Source of the DNA: Clostridium cylindrosporum DSM 605
GTDB taxonomy: Bacteria; Bacillota; Clostridia; Clostridiales; Caloramatoraceae
Direction: 5' to 3'
Assembly (NCBI RefSeq): GCF_001047375.1
Contig: NZ_LFVU01000004.1
Coordinates: 168,513-200,512 of the forward strand
Length of the DNA: 32,000 nucleotides
Shown here: positions 2,723-32,000 of the stretch, piece by piece
Position numbering within the stretch: position 1 is the stretch's first letter
How the letters are laid out: each line of letters starts with the position of its first letter
The notes under the pieces: model-generated
Seen by the model: the letters and a program-made list of their open reading frames with translations, nothing else
What the model was told of the DNA's origin: nothing
Databases searched by the model: none
Program-made: the position numbers and the translations under genes

Positions 2723-3484
2723 CTAGTTTTCCTTTTTGCTTACATTGCTTCTATACCTTTCACTGGGGTATATTGTAAGGATAATGATCCACGGTAGCAT
2801 AAAATTCAATATTAATAGGACAAAAATAATTGTAACAATAAGTATTTGAGTGTTTTGTAGTAAACATTTCAATGAGTTATTATTTATAAAACTACTATAT
2901 ATAATCATACATATAAATATATTTATAATAGAATATATTATTGTAGTAATCCTCAATGGAAAGTTTCCCATCCAGACCTTCATTATCTTAAACTCTGACA
3001 TAGAGTTTTTCTTAAGATAAATTAAGTAGATTATAGTAAACTCAATTATTCTCCCAGGTAAAGTTAACTTAAAATTCATTATAGCAGATTGGTTTATTAT
3101 ATCTCCGTCTAAACTAAGTACATAAAAAATCATACCTACTGTTGTTAGCTGTATTATCATAAACACTACCACACTAAAAAGCAAATACATAACTACCTTA
3201 AAGACCTTCTTTGTCTTTAACAGTATACATATCATTATCACCATACTTAATATGTTTATAATTAGATTAAGGTTCTCATTAATATGTAAAACATATACCA
3301 TTATATTAGATAGAATAGCGCTAGGTACTACTACTATAGATAGAACCTTAATTAAATTAATCTTTAATAAATACTTATCTATGTAATCAAACCTTTTCAT
3401 AAATATTAATGCCATAGCTACTATAAAAATCTCCTCAGGAATTGAGCATAATAGTATATTTAACACTATATCATTGGTTGTCAA
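2723..3484 (-). CDS. Polytopic (~7 TM) membrane protein, paralog 3 of 3, unknown family
   Basis: 253-aa ORF with a TTG start after the SD AGAGGTGAT. Carries IPEE / LPGR / LPWI landmarks. Confidence 0.8.
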   Translation of the reverse strand: MTTNDIVLNILLCSIPEEIFIVAMALIFMKRFDYIDKYLLKINLIKVLSIVVVPSAILSNIMVYVLHINENLNLIINILSMVIMICILLKTKKVFKVVMYLLFSVVVFMIIQLTTVGMIFYVLSLDGDIINQSAIMNFKLTLPGRIIEFTIIYLIYLKKNSMSEFKIMKVWMGNFPLRITTIIYSIINIFICMIIYSSFINNNSLKCLLQNTQILIVTIIFVLLILNFMLPWIIILTIYPSERYRSNVSKKEN

Positions 3485-4415: not shown

Positions 4416-4655
4416 TAAATAGGATTAGTTTCATGCGAAAACTAGGGCTATCAAAACCGATGTGCTTGAGCTGACTGCTAGATATTCTTAACGAAAGTAT
4501 TAATTTTAGCCTTAGTATGGCTGCATGTTTGAGCCTTTAGGCGAGTTTGCGCCAAACTTAGGCTAAAGTTAATACTGAGTTTTAGAATATCTGCAGGCAA
4601 TCTCACCGCATTGAGGTTTTGATAGCCCTAGTTGTAGCTTCACTTACCCTATTTA
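4416..4655 (+). repeat. Long-hairpin repeat element, copy 1 (divergent; apex on + strand)
   Basis: Perfect 19-bp outer stem AACTAGGGCTATCAAAACC (4440-4458) / GGTTTTGATAGCCCTAGTT (4615-4633). Apex GCATGTTTGAGCCTTTAGGCGAGTTTGCG at 4523-4551. Terminal motifs TAAATAGGATTAGTTTC ... CTTACCCTATTTA. Confidence 0.7.
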
Positions 4656-6252: not shown

Positions 6253-6570
6253 TTACTTATTCTTTATGTAAATTTGTTTACCATCTTTAAGTATGTTCTC
6301 TTTAAGACCATCCTTTTTTATATCCTCAAAATTTATAAGATCTACTGTATATATTATATCAAGTTCATAAATTGCATCTCTTAGTAAATTAAGTCTAGTA
6401 GAAGTTATTCTAGTTCCAAACAAAGCTATATCTATATCCGATGTAGTTTTATAGTCTCCTCTTGCCCTAGACCCAAAAATCATAGCCTTCTCTATCTCTT
6501 GAAATTTTTCTAACTGCTTTACTATGGACCCTATTACATAATCTTTAAGACCAAACATCATCATCAACAA
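6253..6570 (-). CDS. Minimal nucleotidyltransferase (MNT) domain protein, putative antitoxin of a HEPN/MNT module
   Basis: GSRARGDYKTTSDIDIALF matches the GSx(n)DxD polymerase-beta-type NTase motif. 105 aa. Overlaps the upstream HEPN gene. Confidence 0.85.
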   Translation of the reverse strand: MLMMMFGLKDYVIGSIVKQLEKFQEIEKAMIFGSRARGDYKTTSDIDIALFGTRITSTRLNLLRDAIYELDIIYTVDLINFEDIKKDGLKENILKDGKQIYIKNK

Positions 6571-6967
6571 CCTTCATGCTTAATATATTCTTCATATTCT
6601 CAAGCTCACAAAAATATTTATCTATTATTTTTTTATAAATAATTTCTACCAATTCCTCATCATAAACATGTGATGTAAGATTTCTATCCTTAAGCATATC
6701 TATCCATAGTTCCCCATCACTGATAAGTCCATACTTAAATCCTTCTCTGAATGTAGAGCGAGGACTTTTAGCTTCTTCTATACCTTCATTTTCTAAAAAT
6801 ACCTTCATAGACTTCCAGCACAGCTCATATGTAAACTCAAATCTTTGAATTACTCCATCCTTTAAAACTGTTGATTCTACATTATTACTACTTTCCTCTA
6901 TAGCTTCCTTAAGTCTCAAAACTGCTCTACTAAAATCATCAATTCTTTCTTCCCATCTCTTACTCAT
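6545..6967 (-). CDS. HEPN-domain protein (HI0074-like nucleotidyltransferase substrate-binding family), putative toxin
   Basis: 140 aa, predicted helical, with an Rx4H motif (RNLTSH) near the C-terminus. Paired with the MNT gene. Confidence 0.85.
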   Translation of the reverse strand: MSKRWEERIDDFSRAVLRLKEAIEESSNNVESTVLKDGVIQRFEFTYELCWKSMKVFLENEGIEEAKSPRSTFREGFKYGLISDGELWIDMLKDRNLTSHVYDEELVEIIYKKIIDKYFCELENMKNILSMKVVDDDVWS

Positions 6968-7101: not shown

Positions 7102-9363
7102 CTATTTTTTCTTCTTATCCTTTTCCTTAGGAAGCATTACACATCCTGTATATGGGTTATAGTACATAAGCCATATACCTGCGTTCCCATGCTTAGCCCA
7201 GCTTACAAATCCGGTCATTCCCTTATATGGTTGATGTGATTCCTTCTTTTCCCCTTCAACACCATATACAAGGTATTTAACTTCTCCATCCTTATCATAC
7301 TTAATACCAAAGTAGTAATATCCTTTACACTTAAAGTATTTTACATAATTGATATATGGATAAGTCATTTTTAGATGATGGATTGCACTATGATATGGGT
7401 AATGTGCATTATCCTTATTAGGGAACTTGTGGTTTTCACGAACCTTCCAGAATCTTATATCCTTGGCTCCCTTAACTTTAACCTCTTCAAATTCCTCTAG
7501 AATTTTATGAAGGATTTTCGCATATCCCTTTTTCTTATGGTCATGATGATCATGATGCTTATTACCATGATCGTGTTTATGATGATTATGATTGCATCCA
7601 CAATTATTATGATGACCATGGTGGTCTTTATCATGATGGTCATGACCTATATGATCTCCGTGTTTACCACACCCATGATGTTCATGGTGTCCTTGTCCAT
7701 GATGCTTGTGGTCGTCATCATCATGGCATCCGTGATGTCCTTGGTGTCCATGTCCGTGATGCTTGTGGTCGTTATCGTCATGGCATCCATGATGTCCTTG
7801 GTGTCCTTGTCCATGATGCTTGTGGTCGTCATCGTCATGGCATCCGTGATGCCCCTGGTGTCCATGTCCATGATGCTTGTGGTCATCATCATCATGATCT
7901 CCGTGATGCCCCTGGTGTCCATGTCCTTGATGCCCGTGATTATCATCATCATGGCCTCCATGATGTCCTTGGTGTCCATGTCCGTGATGCCCGTAGTCGT
8001 CATCATCATGGCCTCCTTGGTGTCCATGTCCGTGATGCCCGTGCTCGTCATCATCATGGCCTCCATGATGTCCTTGGTGTCCATGGTGCCCGTGATGATT
8101 GTTACATGAGTGATTTTCTAGTAAATTTTTATACTTTCTGATTTCCTGATCTAAGAATTCTTTAAATAGCCTTTGGACTTCATCATCTAGCCTATCAAAG
8201 TCAACTTTAACATCATCAGAAAGCTTATCCTTATCTAAATTAACTACCTCTAATGCTCTAGTAAGAATACTTACTTCACAACCAATAGATCTATTAAGAT
8301 CCCTTGCATCCTCTATAATTTCATCATAGTGGAAGGCATCTGAGAACCTATCTTCGCTTTCAAGTATATACATTTTATTAACTTCAGGAATATTTAGACA
8401 ATCCATTTCTTCAAAATCTCTAGTCATACTTTCTGCATAGCTATTGTCAAAATCTATAAAACTTATTTCATTCTCATAGTGTTCAAACTTCAAGCCTTCT
8501 TCTGAATAAGAGTCTATATAATCATCGTCATTTCTTTGAAGTTGTTCGTCAATGTCACTAAGACTAGTGTAGTCAGGTATATCATTATCAACTTCCTCAA
8601 ATTCAATTGAATCATTTCTATCTTCTACTGAATCTTCAGCATCAGATTGTACATCCTCTGTCTCTTCTATTGACTTTTCTACTAATTGTCTTGTCTCTTC
8701 AACTATGTCCTGACTTTCTTTTAAAACTTCTATTGACTCTTCTATAGATTCTTCTATTGATTCCTCTATTGATTCCTCTACTAGTTGTCTTGTTTCTTTA
8801 ACTATATCTTGATTTTCTTCTAGAACTTCAACTTGAGCTCTTTCTACTATATCAGCAATTTCTTCTTCTATAGTAGTTTGTTCAGCTTGTTCAGTTTCTT
8901 TAATTTCTTCTGAAGAAGTTTTCTCCTCCTCAGCAGAAACGAATGACCTACTGCTAATCTTTTCCCTCCATGGCGTTCTATCCTTTCCAGAATAGCCTGC
9001 AAGTGGAACCTGTAGTCTGTTACCTTCCTTAACTACAGCTGCTACATTAAATTTATCTGGAGTAAGACCTGTACCAAATATGTTCTTTGCGTCTTGTTCC
9101 CATACAGTTTCTCCCTTACCAGACTCGTCAACTTCAAGTTCACCAAGATTTGCAACAATAGCTGGATTTTTAGATGAGTCTACTAAGTAACAAGAATATG
9201 GACCCTTATCCCTATTTAGGTTTTGAGCGTATACTGTGATCTTGCACTTCCCACTTCTAGTCTCAATTTTAGTGTACCCTGTAGGTTGCTTATCACTTGA
9301 TATCTCAAAGCCCTTGTCTTCCTCACCAAATATGAGAAAGTATCTATTGTACTTTTTACTCAA
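7102..9363 (-). CDS. 753-aa protein: N-terminal globular domain, long acidic region, histidine-rich tandem repeats, C-terminal Tyr/Lys-rich domain; unknown function
   Basis: Long uninterrupted ORF with a TTG start 6 nt after the SD GGGAGGG. About 8 units of HKHHGHGHQGHHGCHDDDD. ESIE repeats. Confidence 0.85.
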   Translation of the reverse strand: MSKKYNRYFLIFGEEDKGFEISSDKQPTGYTKIETRSGKCKITVYAQNLNRDKGPYSCYLVDSSKNPAIVANLGELEVDESGKGETVWEQDAKNIFGTGLTPDKFNVAAVVKEGNRLQVPLAGYSGKDRTPWREKISSRSFVSAEEEKTSSEEIKETEQAEQTTIEEEIADIVERAQVEVLEENQDIVKETRQLVEESIEESIEESIEESIEVLKESQDIVEETRQLVEKSIEETEDVQSDAEDSVEDRNDSIEFEEVDNDIPDYTSLSDIDEQLQRNDDDYIDSYSEEGLKFEHYENEISFIDFDNSYAESMTRDFEEMDCLNIPEVNKMYILESEDRFSDAFHYDEIIEDARDLNRSIGCEVSILTRALEVVNLDKDKLSDDVKVDFDRLDDEVQRLFKEFLDQEIRKYKNLLENHSCNNHHGHHGHQGHHGGHDDDEHGHHGHGHQGGHDDDDYGHHGHGHQGHHGGHDDDNHGHQGHGHQGHHGDHDDDDHKHHGHGHQGHHGCHDDDDHKHHGQGHQGHHGCHDDNDHKHHGHGHQGHHGCHDDDDHKHHGQGHHEHHGCGKHGDHIGHDHHDKDHHGHHNNCGCNHNHHKHDHGNKHHDHHDHKKKGYAKILHKILEEFEEVKVKGAKDIRFWKVRENHKFPNKDNAHYPYHSAIHHLKMTYPYINYVKYFKCKGYYYFGIKYDKDGEVKYLVYGVEGEKKESHQPYKGMTGFVSWAKHGNAGIWLMYYNPYTGCVMLPKEKDKKKK
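7644..8095 (-). repeat. In-frame 57-bp tandem repeat array (~8 units, one of 48 bp) encoding the His/Gly/Asp-rich units
   Basis: The unit boundary GATGC(T/C)(T/C)GT recurs at 7701, 7758, 7815, 7872, 7929, 7986 and 8034. Confidence 0.9.
8728..8775 (-). repeat. 12-bp tandem repeat x4 encoding (ESIE)n within the acidic region
   Basis: TTCTATTGACTC / TTCTATAGATTC / TTCTATTGATTC / CTCTATTGATTC read consecutively. Confidence 0.8.
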
Positions 9364-9448
9364 CGATTTCCCTCCCTAGGCATAGTTATCATTACATTAT
9401 ATGCATGGCTAATGAAAAATGTACCTTTAGGGGAAATTTTCTTTGTTA

Positions 9449-9664
9449 ATGTAAGTATAGGGTGATGCAGTAGTTGTGTATGGGCTAAGCCAGGCGAGGT
9501 CTTCGAGAAGATCTTCTACTCTGCCTAAATGCTCCTAGACTAAGTGCGACGCAAACTCGCTTCTCTCAAACATGCTTTCTTACTAAGTCTAAGAACATTT
9601 AAACAGATAAGAAGCTCTACCTCTTGACTCTATTGACTTAGCCCCATGCACAACTACTTACAAT
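9449..9664 (-). repeat. Long-hairpin repeat element, copy 2 (apex on - strand)
   Basis: Apex complement CGCAAACTCGCTTCTCTCAAACATGC at 9550-9575. Arms GTAGTTGTGTATGGGCTAAG (from 9470) / CTTAGCCCCATGCACAACTAC (to 9657). Confidence 0.78.
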
Positions 9665-9938: not shown

Positions 9939-10781
9939 CTACATCATCTCATATATTACATTAGAAAGCATAGCAAATTCTTGAATAGTTAGTGTTTCTC
10001 CACGTCTTTTCTCATCTATTCCTGCTGCCGCAAATGCTTCCTTTAGCTTGTCACTTGGAAGACCCACTGGCTTTAAGCTGTTTAGTAGTGTTTTACGTCT
10101 CATGTTAAATGAGTCTCTTATTATTCTGAAGAATAGCTTTTCGTCTTTTACATCTACTTCAGGTTCTTTTATGTTCATTTTAACTACCATTGATTCAACC
10201 TTTGGATTCGGTATAAAGCATGATGGTGGTGCTTTTACTACTTTCTCTACATCTGAGTAGTAGTTAGCAAGTAGAGTTAATGCACCATAGTCTTTAGTTG
10301 AAGGCTTTGCTATAAGTCTTTCAGCTACTTCTTTTTGTATCATAACTGTTATACTTTTAACTCCCTTAGCTTCCTTGAATATCTTATTAATTATAGGAGT
10401 TGTTACATAATAAGGTAGGTTGGCAACTACTTTTATGTTGTCCATTCCCTTTTCTTCAAATAGCTTGTTAAAGTCAACCTTAAGTGCATCTGAATGTACT
10501 ATTTCAACGTTATCATAACTACTTAGTGTTTCTCCAAGGATTGGGATTAATCTATCGTCTATTTCTATAGCAACTACTTTCTTACATCTGCTTGCCATTT
10601 CTTGAGTAAGGACTCCTATTCCAGGGCCTATTTCAAGTGCACATGATGTATCATCAAGTTCTGCTGAGTCTACTATTTTAGTTAGTACATTGTTATCTAC
10701 TAGGAAGTTTTGTCCTAGTGACTTTGCAAATCTAAAGTCAAAATGACTTACTATATCCTTTGTTTTTGAAGCTAAATTCAT
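9939..10781 (-). CDS. rsmA: 16S rRNA (adenine1518/1519-N6)-dimethyltransferase RsmA/KsgA
   Basis: N-terminal SLGQNFLVD, SAM motif EIGPGIGVLT, and NLPYY. 280 aa. Conserved position after rnmV. Confidence 0.95.
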   Translation of the reverse strand: MNLASKTKDIVSHFDFRFAKSLGQNFLVDNNVLTKIVDSAELDDTSCALEIGPGIGVLTQEMASRCKKVVAIEIDDRLIPILGETLSSYDNVEIVHSDALKVDFNKLFEEKGMDNIKVVANLPYYVTTPIINKIFKEAKGVKSITVMIQKEVAERLIAKPSTKDYGALTLLANYYSDVEKVVKAPPSCFIPNPKVESMVVKMNIKEPEVDVKDEKLFFRIIRDSFNMRRKTLLNSLKPVGLPSDKLKEAFAAAGIDEKRRGETLTIQEFAMLSNVIYEMM

Positions 10782-10785
10782 ATTA

Positions 10786-11316
10786 TTATATCCTTTCTAG
10801 TGCTTTTTCAAATTCTTCACGTGTAATGGAATATCTATTTAGTCTACTTAGGAACTGCTTAGCATTACCATAGCCTATTCCAAGAATGGCACCTAACGCA
10901 TCACGACGCTTCGTAGCATCGTTTCCTCCTGAAAGTCTATAGACAATCATATCAGTCATAGTGAATTCCTCGCGAGGGTTCTCAACCTCTGTCTTAACCT
11001 TAGATAAGGCTGCAAGTATGCTCTCAGGAGATGCATTCTCTATTCCTATATCTCCATTTAGTGTTCCCTCAATTCTTGGAAGATACGCATGCTTACATCC
11101 TTTTATCTTAGATGCTATAGTTTTTCTGATTTTCTCCCCTGGAAAATCTGGGTCAGTGAATATAATCACTCCCCTTTTCTCTACTGCATCTTCTATTCTC
11201 TTAAGTATCTTAGGGGTAATCCCGAAACCAGATGTAATAATACAGTCAGCATCTACTGCTCTTTTAACTGCACTAACGTCATCTTTCCCCTCAACTACTA
11301 TAAGTTCTTTTATCAT
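10786..11316 (-). CDS. rnmV: Ribonuclease M5 (Toprim domain)
   Basis: IVVEGKDD ... FTDPDFPGEKIR Toprim signature. 176 aa. Immediately upstream of rsmA, as in Bacillus. Confidence 0.9.
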   Translation of the reverse strand: MIKELIVVEGKDDVSAVKRAVDADCIITSGFGITPKILKRIEDAVEKRGVIIFTDPDFPGEKIRKTIASKIKGCKHAYLPRIEGTLNGDIGIENASPESILAALSKVKTEVENPREEFTMTDMIVYRLSGGNDATKRRDALGAILGIGYGNAKQFLSRLNRYSITREEFEKALERI

Positions 11317-21163: not shown

Positions 21164-23113
21164 CTATCTTACTTGGCTTCCTGATGGAATATCCTTATTT
21201 ATCATTGGAATTTCTAGTATTGAATCATCATCTGTTGATGCTGCAAGTATCATTCCATGTGATTCTATTCCACGTAGTTTTGCTGGCTTTAGGTTAGCTA
21301 CTAGTATAACCTTTTTACCTATTATGTCCTCTGGTGCATAGTGCTTAGCTATTCCTGAAACTATTGTACGAGTTTCTCCTCCTAGTTCCACTGTTAGCTT
21401 AAGTAGCTTATCAGCTTTCTTTACCTTTTCGCACTCTAGTACCTTTACTACTCTAAGGTCTATCTTTGAGAAGTCATCTATTGTTATCTCTTCTTTTATA
21501 GGGATTATTTCTCTCTTTTCTACTCCTTGAGCCTTTAGCATTTCTTCTCTTATCTTGTCTAGTTCTTCTAGCTTCTTTTCTACGTCTATTCTTGGGAACA
21601 TTACTTCTCCTCTTTCAATGCTTAGGTTAAAGTCTATATCCCCGAATACTTTTATGCTGTCTAGTGTAAGAATATTTTCTTCAAACTTGAACTGTGAGTT
21701 TATCTTAACTGCTGTGTCTGGAAGGAATGGTGATATAAGTGTGCTTATAAATCTTATAGCTTCAGTTAGGTTGTATAGTACACCCTTTAGTCTTTCACTA
21801 TTTGCTTCATCCTTCGCTAGTACCCATGGTGCAGTTTCATCTATATACTTGTTCGCTCTAGCTACAAGCTTCATAACTGATTCAACAGCATCATTAACCT
21901 TTAAATTGTCCATGAACTTATCCACATTATTAACAGTTTCCTCTGCAAAACTCTTTAAAGCTTCATCAAATTCATCTTCAATAAGTCCCTTTGAGATATT
22001 ACCATCAAAGTATTTTACTATCATTTGAAGTGTTCTTGAAACAAGGTTTCCAAGGTCATTTGCAAGGTCTGAGTTTGTTCTCTTTATGAAGTTTTCACTT
22101 GTGTATTGTCCGTCACTTCCAAATGATACTTCACGAAGTAGGTAGTATCTAACAGCGTCTACTGAGAAGTGCTCTGAAAGTAGAATTGGGTCTACTACAT
22201 TACCCTTTGACTTTGACATTTTTCCACCGTCAACTAATAGCCAACCATGTCCATATACCTTTTTAGGTAGTGGCATGTCTAGTGCCATTAATAGAGATGG
22301 CCATATAATAGTATGGAATCTTATAATATCTTTTCCTACTATGTGAACATCTGCTGGCCAGAACTTTTCTAGCATTTCTTCATTTTCTGAACTATACCCA
22401 AGTGCTGTTATGTAGTTTGAAAGTGCATCTATCCAAACATATACAACGTGGTCAGTATCAAATGTTACAGGAATTCCCCAGTTAAATGTAGTTCTTGATA
22501 CACATAAATCCTCAAGTCCTGGCTTTATGAAGTTGTTTATCATTTCGTTTTGTCTACTAACTGGTTCTATGAACCCTGGGTTTTCTTCTATATGCTTAAG
22601 TAGTCTATCTTGGTATTTAGATAGCTTAAAGAAGTATGCTTCTTCCTTAGCCTCTTCAACATCTCTTCCACAGTCTGGACATTTTCCATCTACTAATTGT
22701 GTTTCTGTGAAGAAAGTTTCACAAGGTGTACAATACTTTCCTTCATAATGCCCCTTGTATATATCACCTTGATCATAAAGTTTTTTGAATATCTTTTGAA
22801 CTGCTGCTATATGATAATCATCAGTTGTTCTTATGAACTTGTCATTAGATATATTCATTACCTTCCAAAGGTCTTGAATACCAGCTACTATCTCGTCTAC
22901 GTATTCCTTAGGAGTTACCCCTTTATCCTCTGCTTTTCTTTGAATCTTTTGACCATGCTCATCTGTTCCAGTTAAGAACATAACATCGTATCCTGCAAGT
23001 CTTTTGTATCTAGCAATTGCATCTGCAATAACTGTTGAATATGTATTTCCTATATGTAGTTTATCACTTGGATAATATATAGGAGTAGTAATGTAAAAAG
23101 GTTTCTTTGTCAT
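21164..23113 (-). CDS. metG: Methionine--tRNA ligase with C-terminal tRNA-binding (EMAP/Trbp111-like) domain
   Basis: HIGN (HIGH-type) motif, KMSKS motif, zinc knuckle CTPCE...CPDCG, and C-terminal DLRVVKV...ESHGMILAA. 649 aa. Confidence 0.97.
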   Translation of the reverse strand: MTKKPFYITTPIYYPSDKLHIGNTYSTVIADAIARYKRLAGYDVMFLTGTDEHGQKIQRKAEDKGVTPKEYVDEIVAGIQDLWKVMNISNDKFIRTTDDYHIAAVQKIFKKLYDQGDIYKGHYEGKYCTPCETFFTETQLVDGKCPDCGRDVEEAKEEAYFFKLSKYQDRLLKHIEENPGFIEPVSRQNEMINNFIKPGLEDLCVSRTTFNWGIPVTFDTDHVVYVWIDALSNYITALGYSSENEEMLEKFWPADVHIVGKDIIRFHTIIWPSLLMALDMPLPKKVYGHGWLLVDGGKMSKSKGNVVDPILLSEHFSVDAVRYYLLREVSFGSDGQYTSENFIKRTNSDLANDLGNLVSRTLQMIVKYFDGNISKGLIEDEFDEALKSFAEETVNNVDKFMDNLKVNDAVESVMKLVARANKYIDETAPWVLAKDEANSERLKGVLYNLTEAIRFISTLISPFLPDTAVKINSQFKFEENILTLDSIKVFGDIDFNLSIERGEVMFPRIDVEKKLEELDKIREEMLKAQGVEKREIIPIKEEITIDDFSKIDLRVVKVLECEKVKKADKLLKLTVELGGETRTIVSGIAKHYAPEDIIGKKVILVANLKPAKLRGIESHGMILAASTDDDSILEIPMINKDIPSGSQVR

Positions 23114-23159: not shown

Positions 23160-23395
23160 AAATAAAAAAGCCCCACCCCTAGTATCCTAGGGGCGAAGCG
23201 CCGCGTTACCACCCTAATTCATCTTAATGACCTTAAGTGCTATAACGGTGCAACCGTTTTGACCTAAACTAAATTAGATTCAGCCAAAAAGCTCAGGAGC
23301 CATCTTCCTATAATACACATTCTATCGGCTTTCACCTAACCCGACTCTCTTGAAGATACACATTATAGTACTCTTTCCTTCGTAGCTATAAACAG
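23160..23395 (-). promoter_or_regulatory. T-box riboswitch leader (methionine specifier) with terminator/antiterminator, controlling metG
   Basis: The minus strand reads ...AGAGAGUCGGGUUAGGUGAAAGCCGA... (AG box and distal loop). It continues AAUUAGGGUGGUAACGCGGCGCUUCGCCCCUAGGAUACUAGGGGUGGGGCUUUUUUAUUU (T-box sequence plus terminator). A candidate AUG specifier lies at 23301-23303. Confidence 0.85.
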
Positions 23396-27974: not shown

Positions 27975-28210
27975 TGTGAGGTTAGGTGTCTTGCAAGGAT
28001 GTGTTGTCTCCGCCTAATCCGACGAGACCTTCAAACAGATCTTCTAATATGTATAAATCTTCTTAAACTAAGTGCGGCGCAAACTCGCTTCGCTCAAACA
28101 TGCTTCCTTACTAAGTTTAATAACATTTATACATATAAGAATCTCTAGTTTTTGGCTCTATTGTTTTAGTCGCAGACAACACATCCTTGCAAAGAAACTT
28201 TCCCCACATA
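27973..28210 (-). repeat. Long-hairpin repeat element, copy 3 (apex on - strand)
   Basis: Apex complement CGCAAACTCGCTTCGCTCAAACATGC at 28078-28103. Perfect outer stem GGATGTGTTGTCT (27997-28009) / AGACAACACATCC (28174-28186). Termini TATGTGAGG ... CCCCACATA. Confidence 0.82.
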
Positions 28211-28665: not shown

Positions 28666-28905
28666 TATATAGGGATAGTTTCTTTGCAAATAGTGTATCC
28701 TAGGGTTAAACCATAGAGGCAAGAGCTAGAAATTCTTATCCTTATAAATGCTCTAAGACTTAGTTCGGCAGCATGTTTGAGCGAAGCGAGTTTGCGTCGA
28801 TCTTAGTCTCAGAGCATTTGTGGGGATTAGAAGTTCTTCTCGAAGATCTCGTCGGTTTAATCCTAGGCTACACTACTGCAAGGCGCACCACCCTCCCAAT
28901 GTATA
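28666..28905 (+). repeat. Long-hairpin repeat element, copy 4 (apex on + strand)
   Basis: Apex GCATGTTTGAGCGAAGCGAGTTTGCG at 28771-28796. Arms CTTTGCAAATAGTGTATCCTAGGGTTAAACC / GGTTTAATCCTAGGCTACACTACTGCAAGG. Confidence 0.82.
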
Positions 28906-30505: not shown

Positions 30506-30739
30506 ATGTAAGGGAAGTTTCTCTTCTGAGATGTGTTGTCCCTTACTAAATCAATAGAGTCAAAAATTAGAGCTTCTTATCTGTTCAAATATTCATAGAT
30601 TTAGTAAGGCAGCATGTTTGAGCGAAGCGAGTTTGCGCCGCACTTAATCTATGGATGTTTGGATAGATTAGAAGCTCTATTGGAAGATCTCGTCGTTTTA
30701 GTCAGGGACAATACATCTCGAAGGACACCTTCCCACATA
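30506..30739 (+). repeat. Long-hairpin repeat element, copy 5 (apex on + strand)
   Basis: Apex GCATGTTTGAGCGAAGCGAGTTTGCG at 30612-30637. Stem GAGATGTGTTGTCCCT (30528-30543) / AGGGACAATACATCTC (30704-30719). Termini TATGTAAGGGAAG ... CTTCCCACATA. Confidence 0.85.
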
Positions 30740-30926: not shown

Positions 30927-31439
30927 TTATGCGAAGAAAGCATAACATATGTAAACTGTAGCAACACTTCCTAAAATATGCGCTATAAGTGCAGCTGATA
31001 GTGAGTGTCTTATTTTCTTAATTCCAAGTGCCCCAAAGTATATTGATAATGTATAGAATATTGTTTCTGTAGACCCCATTAAAACAGAGGCTATTTTCCC
31101 TTCTATTGAGTCTACTCCATATGTATTCATTATATCTGTCATAACTCCAAGTGATGCACTCCCTGATAGTGGCTTTATAATTATCATCGGAACTACCCCC
31201 TCAGGTATTCCAATAAGTTTTGCTAATGGTGCGAAAAATGATAGTAACCACTCTAGGGCTCCAGATTGTCTAAATATATCTATTGCAAATAGCATTGTTA
31301 ATAGAAATGGTGCTATCTTTACTACTGACTTGAATCCATCCTTTGCACCATCAACAAACTCTTCAAAAACCTTAACCCTTTTAAATACTGCGAAAAATAA
31401 TATACAAAGAATCATAATTGGAACTATGTACTGTGACAT
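30927..31439 (-). CDS. spmB: Spore maturation protein B
   Basis: 170-aa multi-TM protein of the nucleoside-recognition/SpmB type, directly downstream of spmA. Confidence 0.88.
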   Translation of the reverse strand: MSQYIVPIMILCILFFAVFKRVKVFEEFVDGAKDGFKSVVKIAPFLLTMLFAIDIFRQSGALEWLLSFFAPLAKLIGIPEGVVPMIIIKPLSGSASLGVMTDIMNTYGVDSIEGKIASVLMGSTETIFYTLSIYFGALGIKKIRHSLSAALIAHILGSVATVYICYAFFA

Positions 31440-31450
31440 TTTTATCCCTC

Positions 31451-32000
31451 CTACCTGTAAAATCTTCTAAGAAGTGATGATGCAAAAAGTCCTATAATAA
31501 GTGAAGCACCTGTTGCTAGAATTGTAGGTAATATTATGTCTGAAGGGTTTGCACTTCCAAGACTACCTCTTATAGAAATTACTGTTGTCGGTAGAAACTG
31601 AATGCAGGCAGAGTTAACAATTAAAAATGTTACCATGTAGTCAGATGCCCTCTCCTTATTTGGATTTATCTTTTGAAGGCTTTCCATTGCCTTTATTCCA
31701 AATGGTGTTGCTGCATTTGAAAGACCCATCATATTAGATGCTATATTCATAATTATGTTTCCTTGAGCCTCAGGGCTTTTTTGATATAGTCCCCTAAATA
31801 AGAATCTCATAGGTAGTGACAGTGCCTTTGATAATAGGTCAACTAATGATGAAGCTTGACATATTTTCATAATTCCACTCCATACAGCCATCATACCACC
31901 AAGAGTTACAAGTAATTTAATACTCTTTTCAGCTGAAGAACCTATAGTCTCTACCATCAAAGTGGCTTCCCCCTTAATAAGAAAGCTTATTATTCCAAGT
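31451..32000 (-). CDS. spmA: Spore maturation protein A (5' end lies beyond the window)
   Basis: The reading frame stays open upstream of the listed start to position 32000 (...LGIISFLIKGEATLMVETIGSS...). SpmA-like membrane pattern, paired with spmB. Confidence 0.88.
   Translation of the reverse strand, partial: LGIISFLIKGEATLMVETIGSSAEKSIKLLVTLGGMMAVWSGIMKICQASSLVDLLSKALSLPMRFLFRGLYQKSPEAQGNIIMNIASNMMGLSNAATPFGIKAMESLQKINPNKERASDYMVTFLIVNSACIQFLPTTVISIRGSLGSANPSDIILPTILATGASLIIGLFASSLLRRFYR

Follow-up and report, generated by a model that had tools for sequence, protein, structure and literature searches.

Gene and domain architecture

The window studied here is a whole 32-kb stretch (32,000 nucleotides) of contig NZ_LFVU01000004.1 from Clostridium cylindrosporum DSM 605, and our subject is one gene on its minus strand, which encodes a multi-domain protein of 753 amino acids (aa) and 87 kDa (Table 1). 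For the analysis the protein was divided into four segments, residues 1–135, 136–418, 419–609 and 610–753, corresponding to an N-terminal domain, an acidic linker, an array rich in His, Gly and Asp, and a C-terminal domain. Sequence comparison indicates that it belongs to a large Clostridiaceae family and is the extreme case there, no other member having so long a linker or coming near it in His content. The genes of this family keep a nearly fixed position behind rsmA and share an upstream motif resembling a sporulation promoter of the sigma-K type.

The coding sequence opens with a TTG preceded by a strong Shine-Dalgarno (SD) sequence, just as the original prediction, made from the letters of the DNA, had described it; the same start with an identical SD is also found in the closest relatives, L002 and L003. 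This single open reading frame (ORF) links two domains, each of which recurs in over 120 further proteins, and the comparison thereby validates the frame as genuine. Each of the five parts into which the protein had originally been dissected (the four segments and a Cys/His cluster) was located by segment composition, the gene does lie just downstream of rsmA, and the protein contains neither a signal peptide nor a transmembrane segment, its highest Kyte-Doolittle mean over 19 residues being 0.85.

Pfam PF25538 (DUF7922) matches residues 15–126 at 40.7 bits (cutoff 25, E 2.9e-10), and at 45.1 bits when the N-terminal domain is scanned alone. AlphaFold2 (AF2), run with a 27-sequence alignment, gave a model of residues 1–135 with a predicted local distance difference test (pLDDT) score of about 90–95. 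The nearest structures to this model in a Foldseek search of the PDB were Cu,Zn superoxide dismutases (SODs), with E values of 8e-4 to 1e-2, a probability of about 1.0, target-normalised template modelling (TM) scores of 0.55–0.69 and an identity of 9–16%; they include the loop-deleted monomeric human SOD1 (4bcz/4bd4) and have the same 8-stranded Greek-key beta-sandwich as the model. A PDB sequence search with the domain returned only immunoglobulin and T-cell receptor matches at chance level, and no SOD. The N-terminal domain, which had been taken as unrecognised, is thus DUF7922 with a SOD-like predicted fold.

The likeness does not extend to the metal site. Cu,Zn SODs use six His and one Asp as metal ligands, whereas residues 1–135 contain no His at all (pI 8.5, slightly basic); the N-domains of the family average 1.3 His each, and no His column is conserved in the family alignment. 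We are therefore confident that the modelled domain shares the SOD-like Greek-key scaffold and not its metal site. The same fold, poor in ligands, is seen in domain II of the copper chaperone CCS. A Cu,Zn SOD function was rejected, there being no His ligands.

The C-terminal domain is basic (18% Lys, 12% Tyr, pI 9.6) and defines the family. AF2 predicts a confident alpha/beta fold at residues 610–745, with a predicted TM score of 0.81 when the domain is modelled alone. Pfam and NCBIfam scans of the separated C-terminal segment (145 aa) and middle segments gave no match, Foldseek gave nothing credible in either the PDB (best E 0.3, TM below 0.35) or BFVD (best E 0.08), and a PDB sequence search with the C-domain profile again returned only chance-level immunoglobulin and T-cell receptor matches. 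GNAT/ESCO1-type Foldseek hits were rejected (TM below 0.25, probability below 0.1). The domain therefore stays as unrecognised as it had been called, with no match in Pfam, NCBIfam, the PDB or BFVD, and the model, compared with the PDB and BFVD only, may represent a new fold.

Conservation in both terminal domains is structural in kind and falls mostly on Gly, Pro and aromatic residues. Those conserved at 90% or above are R7, F9, G29, E34, G74, G82 and G123 in the N-domain, and G686, Y700, G704, Q711, P712, G715, G718, F719, W722, G729 and W731 in the C-domain. The window protein carries every one of them, including the terminal Q-P-Y-x-G-x-T-G-F..W motif. No conserved His, Cys or catalytic set, and no signature of metal binding, was found in either terminal domain by this family conservation analysis.

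Table 1. Features of the target gene and of the surrounding window (positions are those of the window; aa, residues of the 753-aa protein).
Feature	Position	Strand	Basis or remark
Complete coding sequence, 753 aa	7102-9363	minus	TTG start 9361-9363, TAG stop 7102-7104
Shine-Dalgarno sequence GGGAGGG	9370-9376	minus	6 nt ahead of the TTG start
Putative sigma-K-type promoter	9396-9422	minus	motif match; -35 AC 9421-9422, 17-nt spacer, -10 CATATAAT 9396-9403
N-terminal domain DUF7922, predicted 8-stranded Greek-key beta-sandwich, aa 1-135	8959-9363	minus	Pfam PF25538, AF2 and Foldseek
Acidic, partly helical linker, aa 136-418	8110-8958	minus	composition and AF2
Duplicated 17-aa block QDIV.ETRQLVE.SIEE, aa 185 and 218	8761-8811 and 8662-8712	minus	sequence
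(ESIE)4, aa 197-212	8728-8775	minus	sequence
Conserved short linker motif EGLKFEHYENEIS, aa 289-301	8461-8499	minus	family consensus EEAKKFKEYEE.I; E297 nearly invariant
His/Gly/Asp(/Cys) array, 191 residues, aa 419-609	7537-8109	minus	composition and repeat analysis
Cys/His cluster NNCGCNHNHHKHDH, aa 586-599	7567-7608	minus	non-repeated tail of the His region
C-terminal Tyr/Lys/Gly-rich alpha/beta domain, family-defining, aa 610-753	7105-7536	minus	HMMER profile and AF2
Other-frame ORF over the 57-bp repeat	7507-8109	plus	translation rich in Met/Val/Ile
Other-frame ORF over the 57-bp repeat	7647-8084	minus	translation rich in Met/Thr/Asp
rsmA	9939-10781	minus	upstream neighbour
rnmV	10786-11316	minus	upstream of rsmA
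T-box leader	23186-23392	minus	111.7 bits, E 3.6e-24; upstream of metG (21164-23113)
HepT (NTase substrate-binding, 140 aa) and MNT (Pol-beta nucleotidyltransferase, 105 aa)	6253-6967	minus	genes overlap
Lipoprotein-like ORF, 260 aa	4649-5431	minus	LSAC lipobox-like N-terminus, no family match
Palindromic element, about 185 nt	9473-9657	minus	between rsmA and the target promoter
Palindrome copy	28014-28169	plus	intergenic
Palindrome copy	28713-28851	minus	intergenic
Palindrome copy	30546-30692	minus	intergenic
Palindrome copy, partial	4506-4565		intergenic
Three tandem paralogous genes	857-1645, 1711-2475, 2723-3484	minus	about 255 aa each
Two adjacent single-Gate-domain (nucleoside-recognition) proteins	30927-31439 and 31451-31960	minus	about 170 aa each

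The acidic linker and the histidine array

Residues 136–418 contain 92 Asp and Glu and have a pI of 4.05; AF2 places helices at residues 165–235, 288–318 and 385–421. Both repeats announced by the original prediction, (ESIE)4 and the duplicated QDIV.ETRQLVE.SIEE block, lie in this region, and Tandem Repeats Finder recovers the ESIE array as a 12-bp period in 4.5 copies at 8727–8780. Family linkers are 22–473 aa long and nearly always acidic, with Asp and Glu together at about 30%, the window protein holding the upper end (473 aa, against 22–413 aa in the other members). Length also varies within species, from 510 to 567 aa in C. baratii and from 508 to 633 aa in C. saccharobutylicum, each range within one 90%-identity cluster. 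The relative L001 (Logan contig, 1–577) offers a separate observation: its acidic region runs into a stop codon, and the C-domain forms a separate 149-aa ORF beginning 4 nt later, which means that the gene is split or that the repeat-rich linker contains a frameshift or an error of assembly.

The His/Gly/Asp(/Cys) array that follows contains 77 His (40% of its residues), 7 Cys and 35 Asp and Glu. It is formed by seven units of 17–22 aa, each closing with a run of Asp, and by an eighth, degenerate unit. A Cys at a fixed position (HHGC) is present in four of the units, as predicted, although these are the last four (units 5–8) and not the central ones. At the DNA level, Tandem Repeats Finder reports a 57-bp period in 7.4 copies at 7673–8085 (84% matches, score 518), and the 19-aa units are 77–93% identical to each other. 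The predicted Cys/His cluster is present as NNCGCNHNHHKHDH, starting at residue 586. AF2 predicts the array to be disordered, with pLDDT of about 40 (below 50). Two further ORFs in other frames overlap the 57-bp repeat (Table 1); they are artefacts of the codon composition of the repeat and do not merit annotation as genes.

The five nearest relatives (P0003, P0004, P0198, P0199 and P0200; 54–60% identical) share the middle region of the window protein, and all of them carry a short, non-repetitive His/Cys-rich patch of about 30–80 aa at the site of the array, directly before the C-domain. Because these closest relatives have such a patch at the same place, we read the array as a lineage-specific amplification of a pre-existing short His/Cys patch through 57-bp tandem duplication.

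Across the family, most members have no His-rich region. His-dense tracts were found in 13 of the 149 representatives, at varied linker positions and with unrelated sequences (such as HEHEHEHEHEHGHEH, HKHDHEHEEHNHKHDHEHEEH and HHHEKHHHDDHHHEEHHDDHH); Cys is frequent in these tracts, and in a few linkers it reaches 6–8.5%. This distribution indicates that His/Cys chemistry arose repeatedly in the spacer of the family and is not family-wide. The size of the array is unique among the 149 representatives and 82 loci, no other representative exceeding 23 His against the 77 found here, and two metagenome scans returned no closer relative with a large array, and one distant relative only. Since most members contain no His-rich region, the sequences indicate that metal binding is not the core role of the family.

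Family, hosts and conserved position

With a profile of the C-domain, HMMER was run exhaustively against 1.84 billion cluster representatives (E <= 1e-3) and yielded 212 clusters at 50% identity, with the match almost always at the extreme C-terminus of proteins of 330–690 aa. The exhaustive search was needed, word-indexed searches with either terminal domain alone having given one fragment each. DUF7922, linker and C-domain are found in this order in 122 of 149 representatives. The multi-domain arrangement, unfamiliar to the original prediction, is therefore standard in this functionally uncharacterised family. The window protein scores above the gathering threshold for PF25538 and shares with the DUF7922 proteins of Clostridiaceae the N-domain, the C-domain with its motif, the order of the parts, the position behind rnmV and rsmA, and the upstream motif; it differs from them in that it alone has a large tandem His/Gly/Asp array.

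The hosts comprise Caloramator, Thermobrachium, Fervidicella, Fonticella and Haloimpatiens, together with Clostridium sensu stricto species such as C. ljungdahlii, C. carboxidivorans, C. tyrobutyricum, C. argentinense, C. tetanomorphum, C. baratii and C. saccharobutylicum, and, more distantly, Thermohalobacter and Clostridiisalibacter. Named members are found in Thermobrachium celere, Fervidicella metallireducens (Q428_00140), Fonticella tunisiensis (WP_133629091.1) and Clostridium baratii (U729_1226). In public databases they appear as 'hypothetical protein', as 'DUF7922 domain-containing protein' or under automatic labels, of which two borne by some orthologues, 'BAH domain-containing protein' and 'transmembrane protein', are unsupported (no BAH match, no hydrophobic segment).

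In the window, the target gene closes a block of minus-strand genes formed by metG, tatD, a gene for a yabE-like 3D-domain protein, an osmoprotectant ATP-binding cassette transporter, floT, rnmV and rsmA. One genome per species was scanned, giving 80 loci. The family gene stands directly behind rnmV-rsmA in 79 of the 80, within the metG-tatD-yabE block; yabE lies upstream in 77 and tatD in 71. The gene of a marine out-group that is 36% identical (L082) is likewise found behind rsmA. The survey of homologues and their neighbourhoods that had been suggested with the original prediction thus ended in a family of at least 212 clusters with a fixed place behind rsmA.

Downstream of the target gene are the HepT/MNT toxin-antitoxin pair, a GNAT acetyltransferase and the lipoprotein-like ORF. 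In 70 of 80 loci a homologue of the last lies downstream of the family gene, and this ORF may belong to the same functional neighbourhood. A gene for a membrane-anchored protein of about 190 aa follows the family gene in 69 of 78 loci, often 1–17 nt away and often translationally coupled; it was undetectable anywhere in the window and is apparently absent too from the nearest full-length relative, L002. In the window its slot is filled by the HepT/MNT pair.

The spacer between rsmA and the target gene measures 575 bp in the window against about 70–100 bp elsewhere, because a near-perfect palindromic element of about 185 nt is inserted there. Folded as RNA, the element has a minimum free energy of -90.9 kcal/mol (z = -10.1 versus shuffles). 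Further intergenic copies, about 81% identical, occur in the window (Table 1); no Rfam family matches the element and none of the 80 related loci contains it. It resembles a lineage-specific element of the type of miniature inverted-repeat transposable elements or repetitive extragenic palindromes.

A sigma-K-type motif upstream of the gene

Alignment of the 120 nt upstream of 81 family genes revealed a conserved block, GTTCAc-N16-tCATATAtTATAATGA, about 40 nt before the start codon (consensus with CATATAtTATAATGA). Within it, CATATA and a T two bases further on (CATATAnT) are invariant in 81 of 81 regions. The pattern AC-N15-17-CATAnnnT occurs in 59 of the 81 regions, as compared with 1.6 in shuffles, and the strict form AC-N16-17-CATAnnnTA in 57; in the rest of these loci its frequency is 0.06 per kb, from which 0.58 would be expected (about 100-fold enrichment). 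In C. difficile, sigma-K promoters have a -35 AC and a -10 CATATAAT, while sigma-E promoters have a -35 ATA (PMC3789822). In sequence, the window motif (AC, 17 nt, CATATAAT) conforms to the sigma-K pattern. None of the 81 regions contained a sigma-E-type ATA at sigma-E spacing.

A sigma-A promoter (TTCACT-17-TATATT, or a perfect TATAAT with a 22-nt spacer) was also considered and is disfavoured. At its third base the -35 block has C in 66 of 81 regions and in none a G, which argues against a TTGACA box; in addition, the invariant CA falls outside the hexamer, and a simple sigma-70 scan upstream of the target start gave no site. Boxes of the Fur, PerR or Zur type were sought by eye in the block downstream of the -10 and dropped, the half-sites not being palindromic. 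From the motif, then, sporulation-specific expression of the sigma-K type is rather probable.

Other features of the window

Three further elements lie apart from the target gene (Table 1). A T-box leader precedes metG, as expected for an aminoacyl-tRNA synthetase gene of Firmicutes. Three tandem paralogous genes encode proteins with 26–35% identity, hydrophobic N-termini and a shared I-P-E-E motif, with no Pfam or NCBIfam match. Finally, two adjacent proteins each have a single Gate domain, as is the arrangement of the spore maturation proteins SpmA/SpmB; NCBIfam named neither, and they may be such a pair.

Discussion

The reading that we favour, at an even chance, is that the protein would be a late mother-cell product serving as a structural component of the outer layers of the spore, coat or exosporium. 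It is suggested by the sigma-K-type promoter, the lack of an export signal, the non-catalytic folded ends, the hypervariable and repeat-prone centre and the Tyr/Lys-rich terminal domain. Mechanistically, the gene would be transcribed from its own sigma-K-type promoter, late in sporulation and within the mother cell; the protein would be synthesised in the mother-cell cytoplasm and then deposited on the developing spore, which is consistent with the missing export signal. The two folded end domains would dock onto partners or self-associate, with the long acidic, partly helical and hypervariable middle acting as a spacer between them. In the window protein, the amplified array would bind many divalent ions (Ni, Zn, Cu, Co) and add a metal-binding or metal-cross-linked property to the layer. 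A spore-associated metal-binding or structural role had been called conceivable, if speculative, in the original prediction; of this, spore association is the best supported part, through the sigma-K-type motif and the synteny in 80 genomes, and metal binding as the basic role of the family has to be given up.

Several points weigh against the proposed outer-layer role. The sigma-K assignment is a motif match, and the motif is imperfect in places: the -10 of the window reads CATATAATG and not ...TA, the distant relative L082 has no recognisable CATATA box, and the conserved block runs about 8 nt past the sigma-K -10 box (TATAATGA; 9388–9403, minus strand, in the window) and contains a perfect TATAAT, so that the extra nucleotides may be part of a second promoter, bind a regulator or belong to the surroundings of the start site. 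Many of the 80 loci come from related Clostridium species, and the counts are thus not independent. Sigma-K has also been reported to act early in some clostridia, the coat is one of several fates for a mother-cell protein, and the window alone does not prove that the source organism sporulates. Our literature search found DUF7922 mentioned in no paper, no experimental datum for any member, no proteomic record, no transcriptome that could be matched through its locus tags, and nothing usable under C. acetobutylicum locus tags, His-rich clostridial coat proteins or rsmA in C. beijerinckii transcriptome supplements.

The same promoter and synteny would also serve for a protein that is specific to sporulation and not structural, such as a transient assembly factor, a scaffold, a regulator or an enzyme with its active site in the C-domain. 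In B. subtilis the sigma-K-dependent yabG follows ksgA, and the target gene, in the corresponding slot behind rsmA/ksgA, could be its positional analogue; a C-domain with no known fold match leaves room for an activity. What makes this alternative unlikely to us is that the C-domain conserves Gly, Pro, Tyr, Phe, Trp and a single Gln, with no set of Cys, His, Ser, Asp or Glu, that no enzyme family matches in Pfam or NCBIfam, and that a hypervariable, repeat-prone linker with length variation within species is more typical of structural or surface proteins. Further still from our reading is a vegetative, cytoplasmic metal store or buffer, or a metallochaperone, unrelated to sporulation, for which Hpn would be the model. 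Hpn and Hpn-like of Helicobacter pylori are Ni storage proteins, and HypB, SlyD, UreE and CooJ carry His tracts; like the array (40% His with Asp runs and Cys), all of them are extremely rich in His, among which Cys, Asp, Glu and Gln are interspersed, a composition that implies binding of divalent metals at multiple sites, and the missing export signal would suit a cytoplasmic protein. However, those systems are small cytoplasmic proteins or tails on maturation factors of Ni enzymes, whereas the array is an insert in the spacer of a two-domain protein of 87 kDa, as compared with the 7 kDa of Hpn, and it is missing from most family members. The promoter is of the sigma-K type, with no sigma-70-like site found; Pfam and NCBIfam scans revealed no GTPase, peptidyl-prolyl isomerase, UreE or other accessory domain; and the neighbours (rnmV, rsmA, HepT/MNT, GNAT and the lipoprotein-like ORF) include no Ni-enzyme or metal-transport gene, with hydrogenase, urease and carbon monoxide dehydrogenase maturation genes and Ni/Co transport genes all absent from the window and from the C. 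ljungdahlii locus. We consider such a store very improbable. The likeness to Hpn, HypB and SlyD noted in the original prediction accordingly stands for composition and fails for any homologous core, accessory domain or hydrogenase/urease context.

The array poses a question of its own within the spore-layer reading. Given its composition, it would very probably bind metal in vitro; that such binding matters biologically we rate at evens or slightly above, and its purpose may be storage, detoxification, cross-linking or none. The alternative is that a recent slippage expansion has been tolerated in the spacer, with no selected function and with metal binding as an incidental property. The uniqueness of the array in size, units still 77–93% identical in DNA and thus recently duplicated, a linker highly variable in length and composition across and within species, and a second slippage-type repeat, (ESIE)4, in the acidic part are all as this alternative would have them. 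On the other hand, patches dense in His, accompanied by Asp, Glu, Lys and often Cys, have arisen repeatedly, in 13 of 149 representatives, and the five closest relatives all keep a His/Cys patch at the same site, two points that suggest recurrent selection; the units have diverged and yet retain the His, Gly, Asp pattern and the fixed Cys; and a long ORF has been kept open across an easily frameshifted repeat. A neutral array therefore seems to us rather doubtful, if to be taken seriously.

For the proposed structural role the closest known parallel is CotG, a spore coat protein of B. subtilis, whose termini contact coat partners and whose central repeats, derived from gene elongation and variable among species, act as a spacer that tunes coat permeability; CotG-like proteins are defined by their organisation and chromosomal position and not by sequence homology (PMC9765600). 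As in the window protein, disordered and variable central repeats stand between N- and C-terminal modules. The two have no sequence or domain homology, however: the ends of the window protein are large, conserved, folded domains, the CotG spacer is rich in Lys, Arg and Ser and positively charged, whereas the middle here is acidic or His-rich, and cotG has a divergently adjacent cotH kinase gene, for which no counterpart was found at the target locus or at that of C. ljungdahlii. By analogy of organisation, the family would be an analogue of CotG and not a member of its group.

A bolder version of the spore-layer reading is a long shot: a building block of spore layers throughout the Clostridiaceae, with a self-assembling C-domain of new fold and with the array as a metal-coordination cross-linker (His-Zn, His-Ni or His-Cu). 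The Nereis jaw protein Nvjp-1 is a His/Gly-rich, metal-cross-linked structural protein, and its disordered sequence, dominated by Gly and His, resembles that of the array (HGHGHQGHHG), which could likewise form inter-chain His-metal cross-links. The analogy is one of chemistry, between different kingdoms and with no homology. If the idea were true, His-metal bridges would make the coat harder or tighter, provide the spore with a store of metal or serve as a switch responsive to pH or metal, and bacteria would have in this protein their own equivalent of biomaterials that are rich in His and cross-linked by metal.

Although DUF7922 is already catalogued in Pfam, the position behind rsmA, the sigma-K-type promoter, the C-domain with no known fold and the CotG-like organisation appear to be new. 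If the gene is vegetative after all, an unknown regulator would be indicated by the block conserved in its promoter. The coats and exosporia of clostridia are much less understood than those of Bacillus, with many components clade-specific and unnamed, and a gene at a fixed position in about 80 sequenced Clostridiaceae is a testable candidate for a new family of spore-layer proteins. Among its hosts are species used in industry (C. ljungdahlii, C. carboxidivorans, C. tyrobutyricum and C. saccharobutylicum) and toxigenic ones (C. baratii and C. argentinense). Within this family, the array of 77 His in the spacer amounts to a natural experiment: it may be of practical interest for spore display and metal capture, and, if located on the surface of the spore, it would influence the sorption of metal, as well as resistance and perhaps germination.

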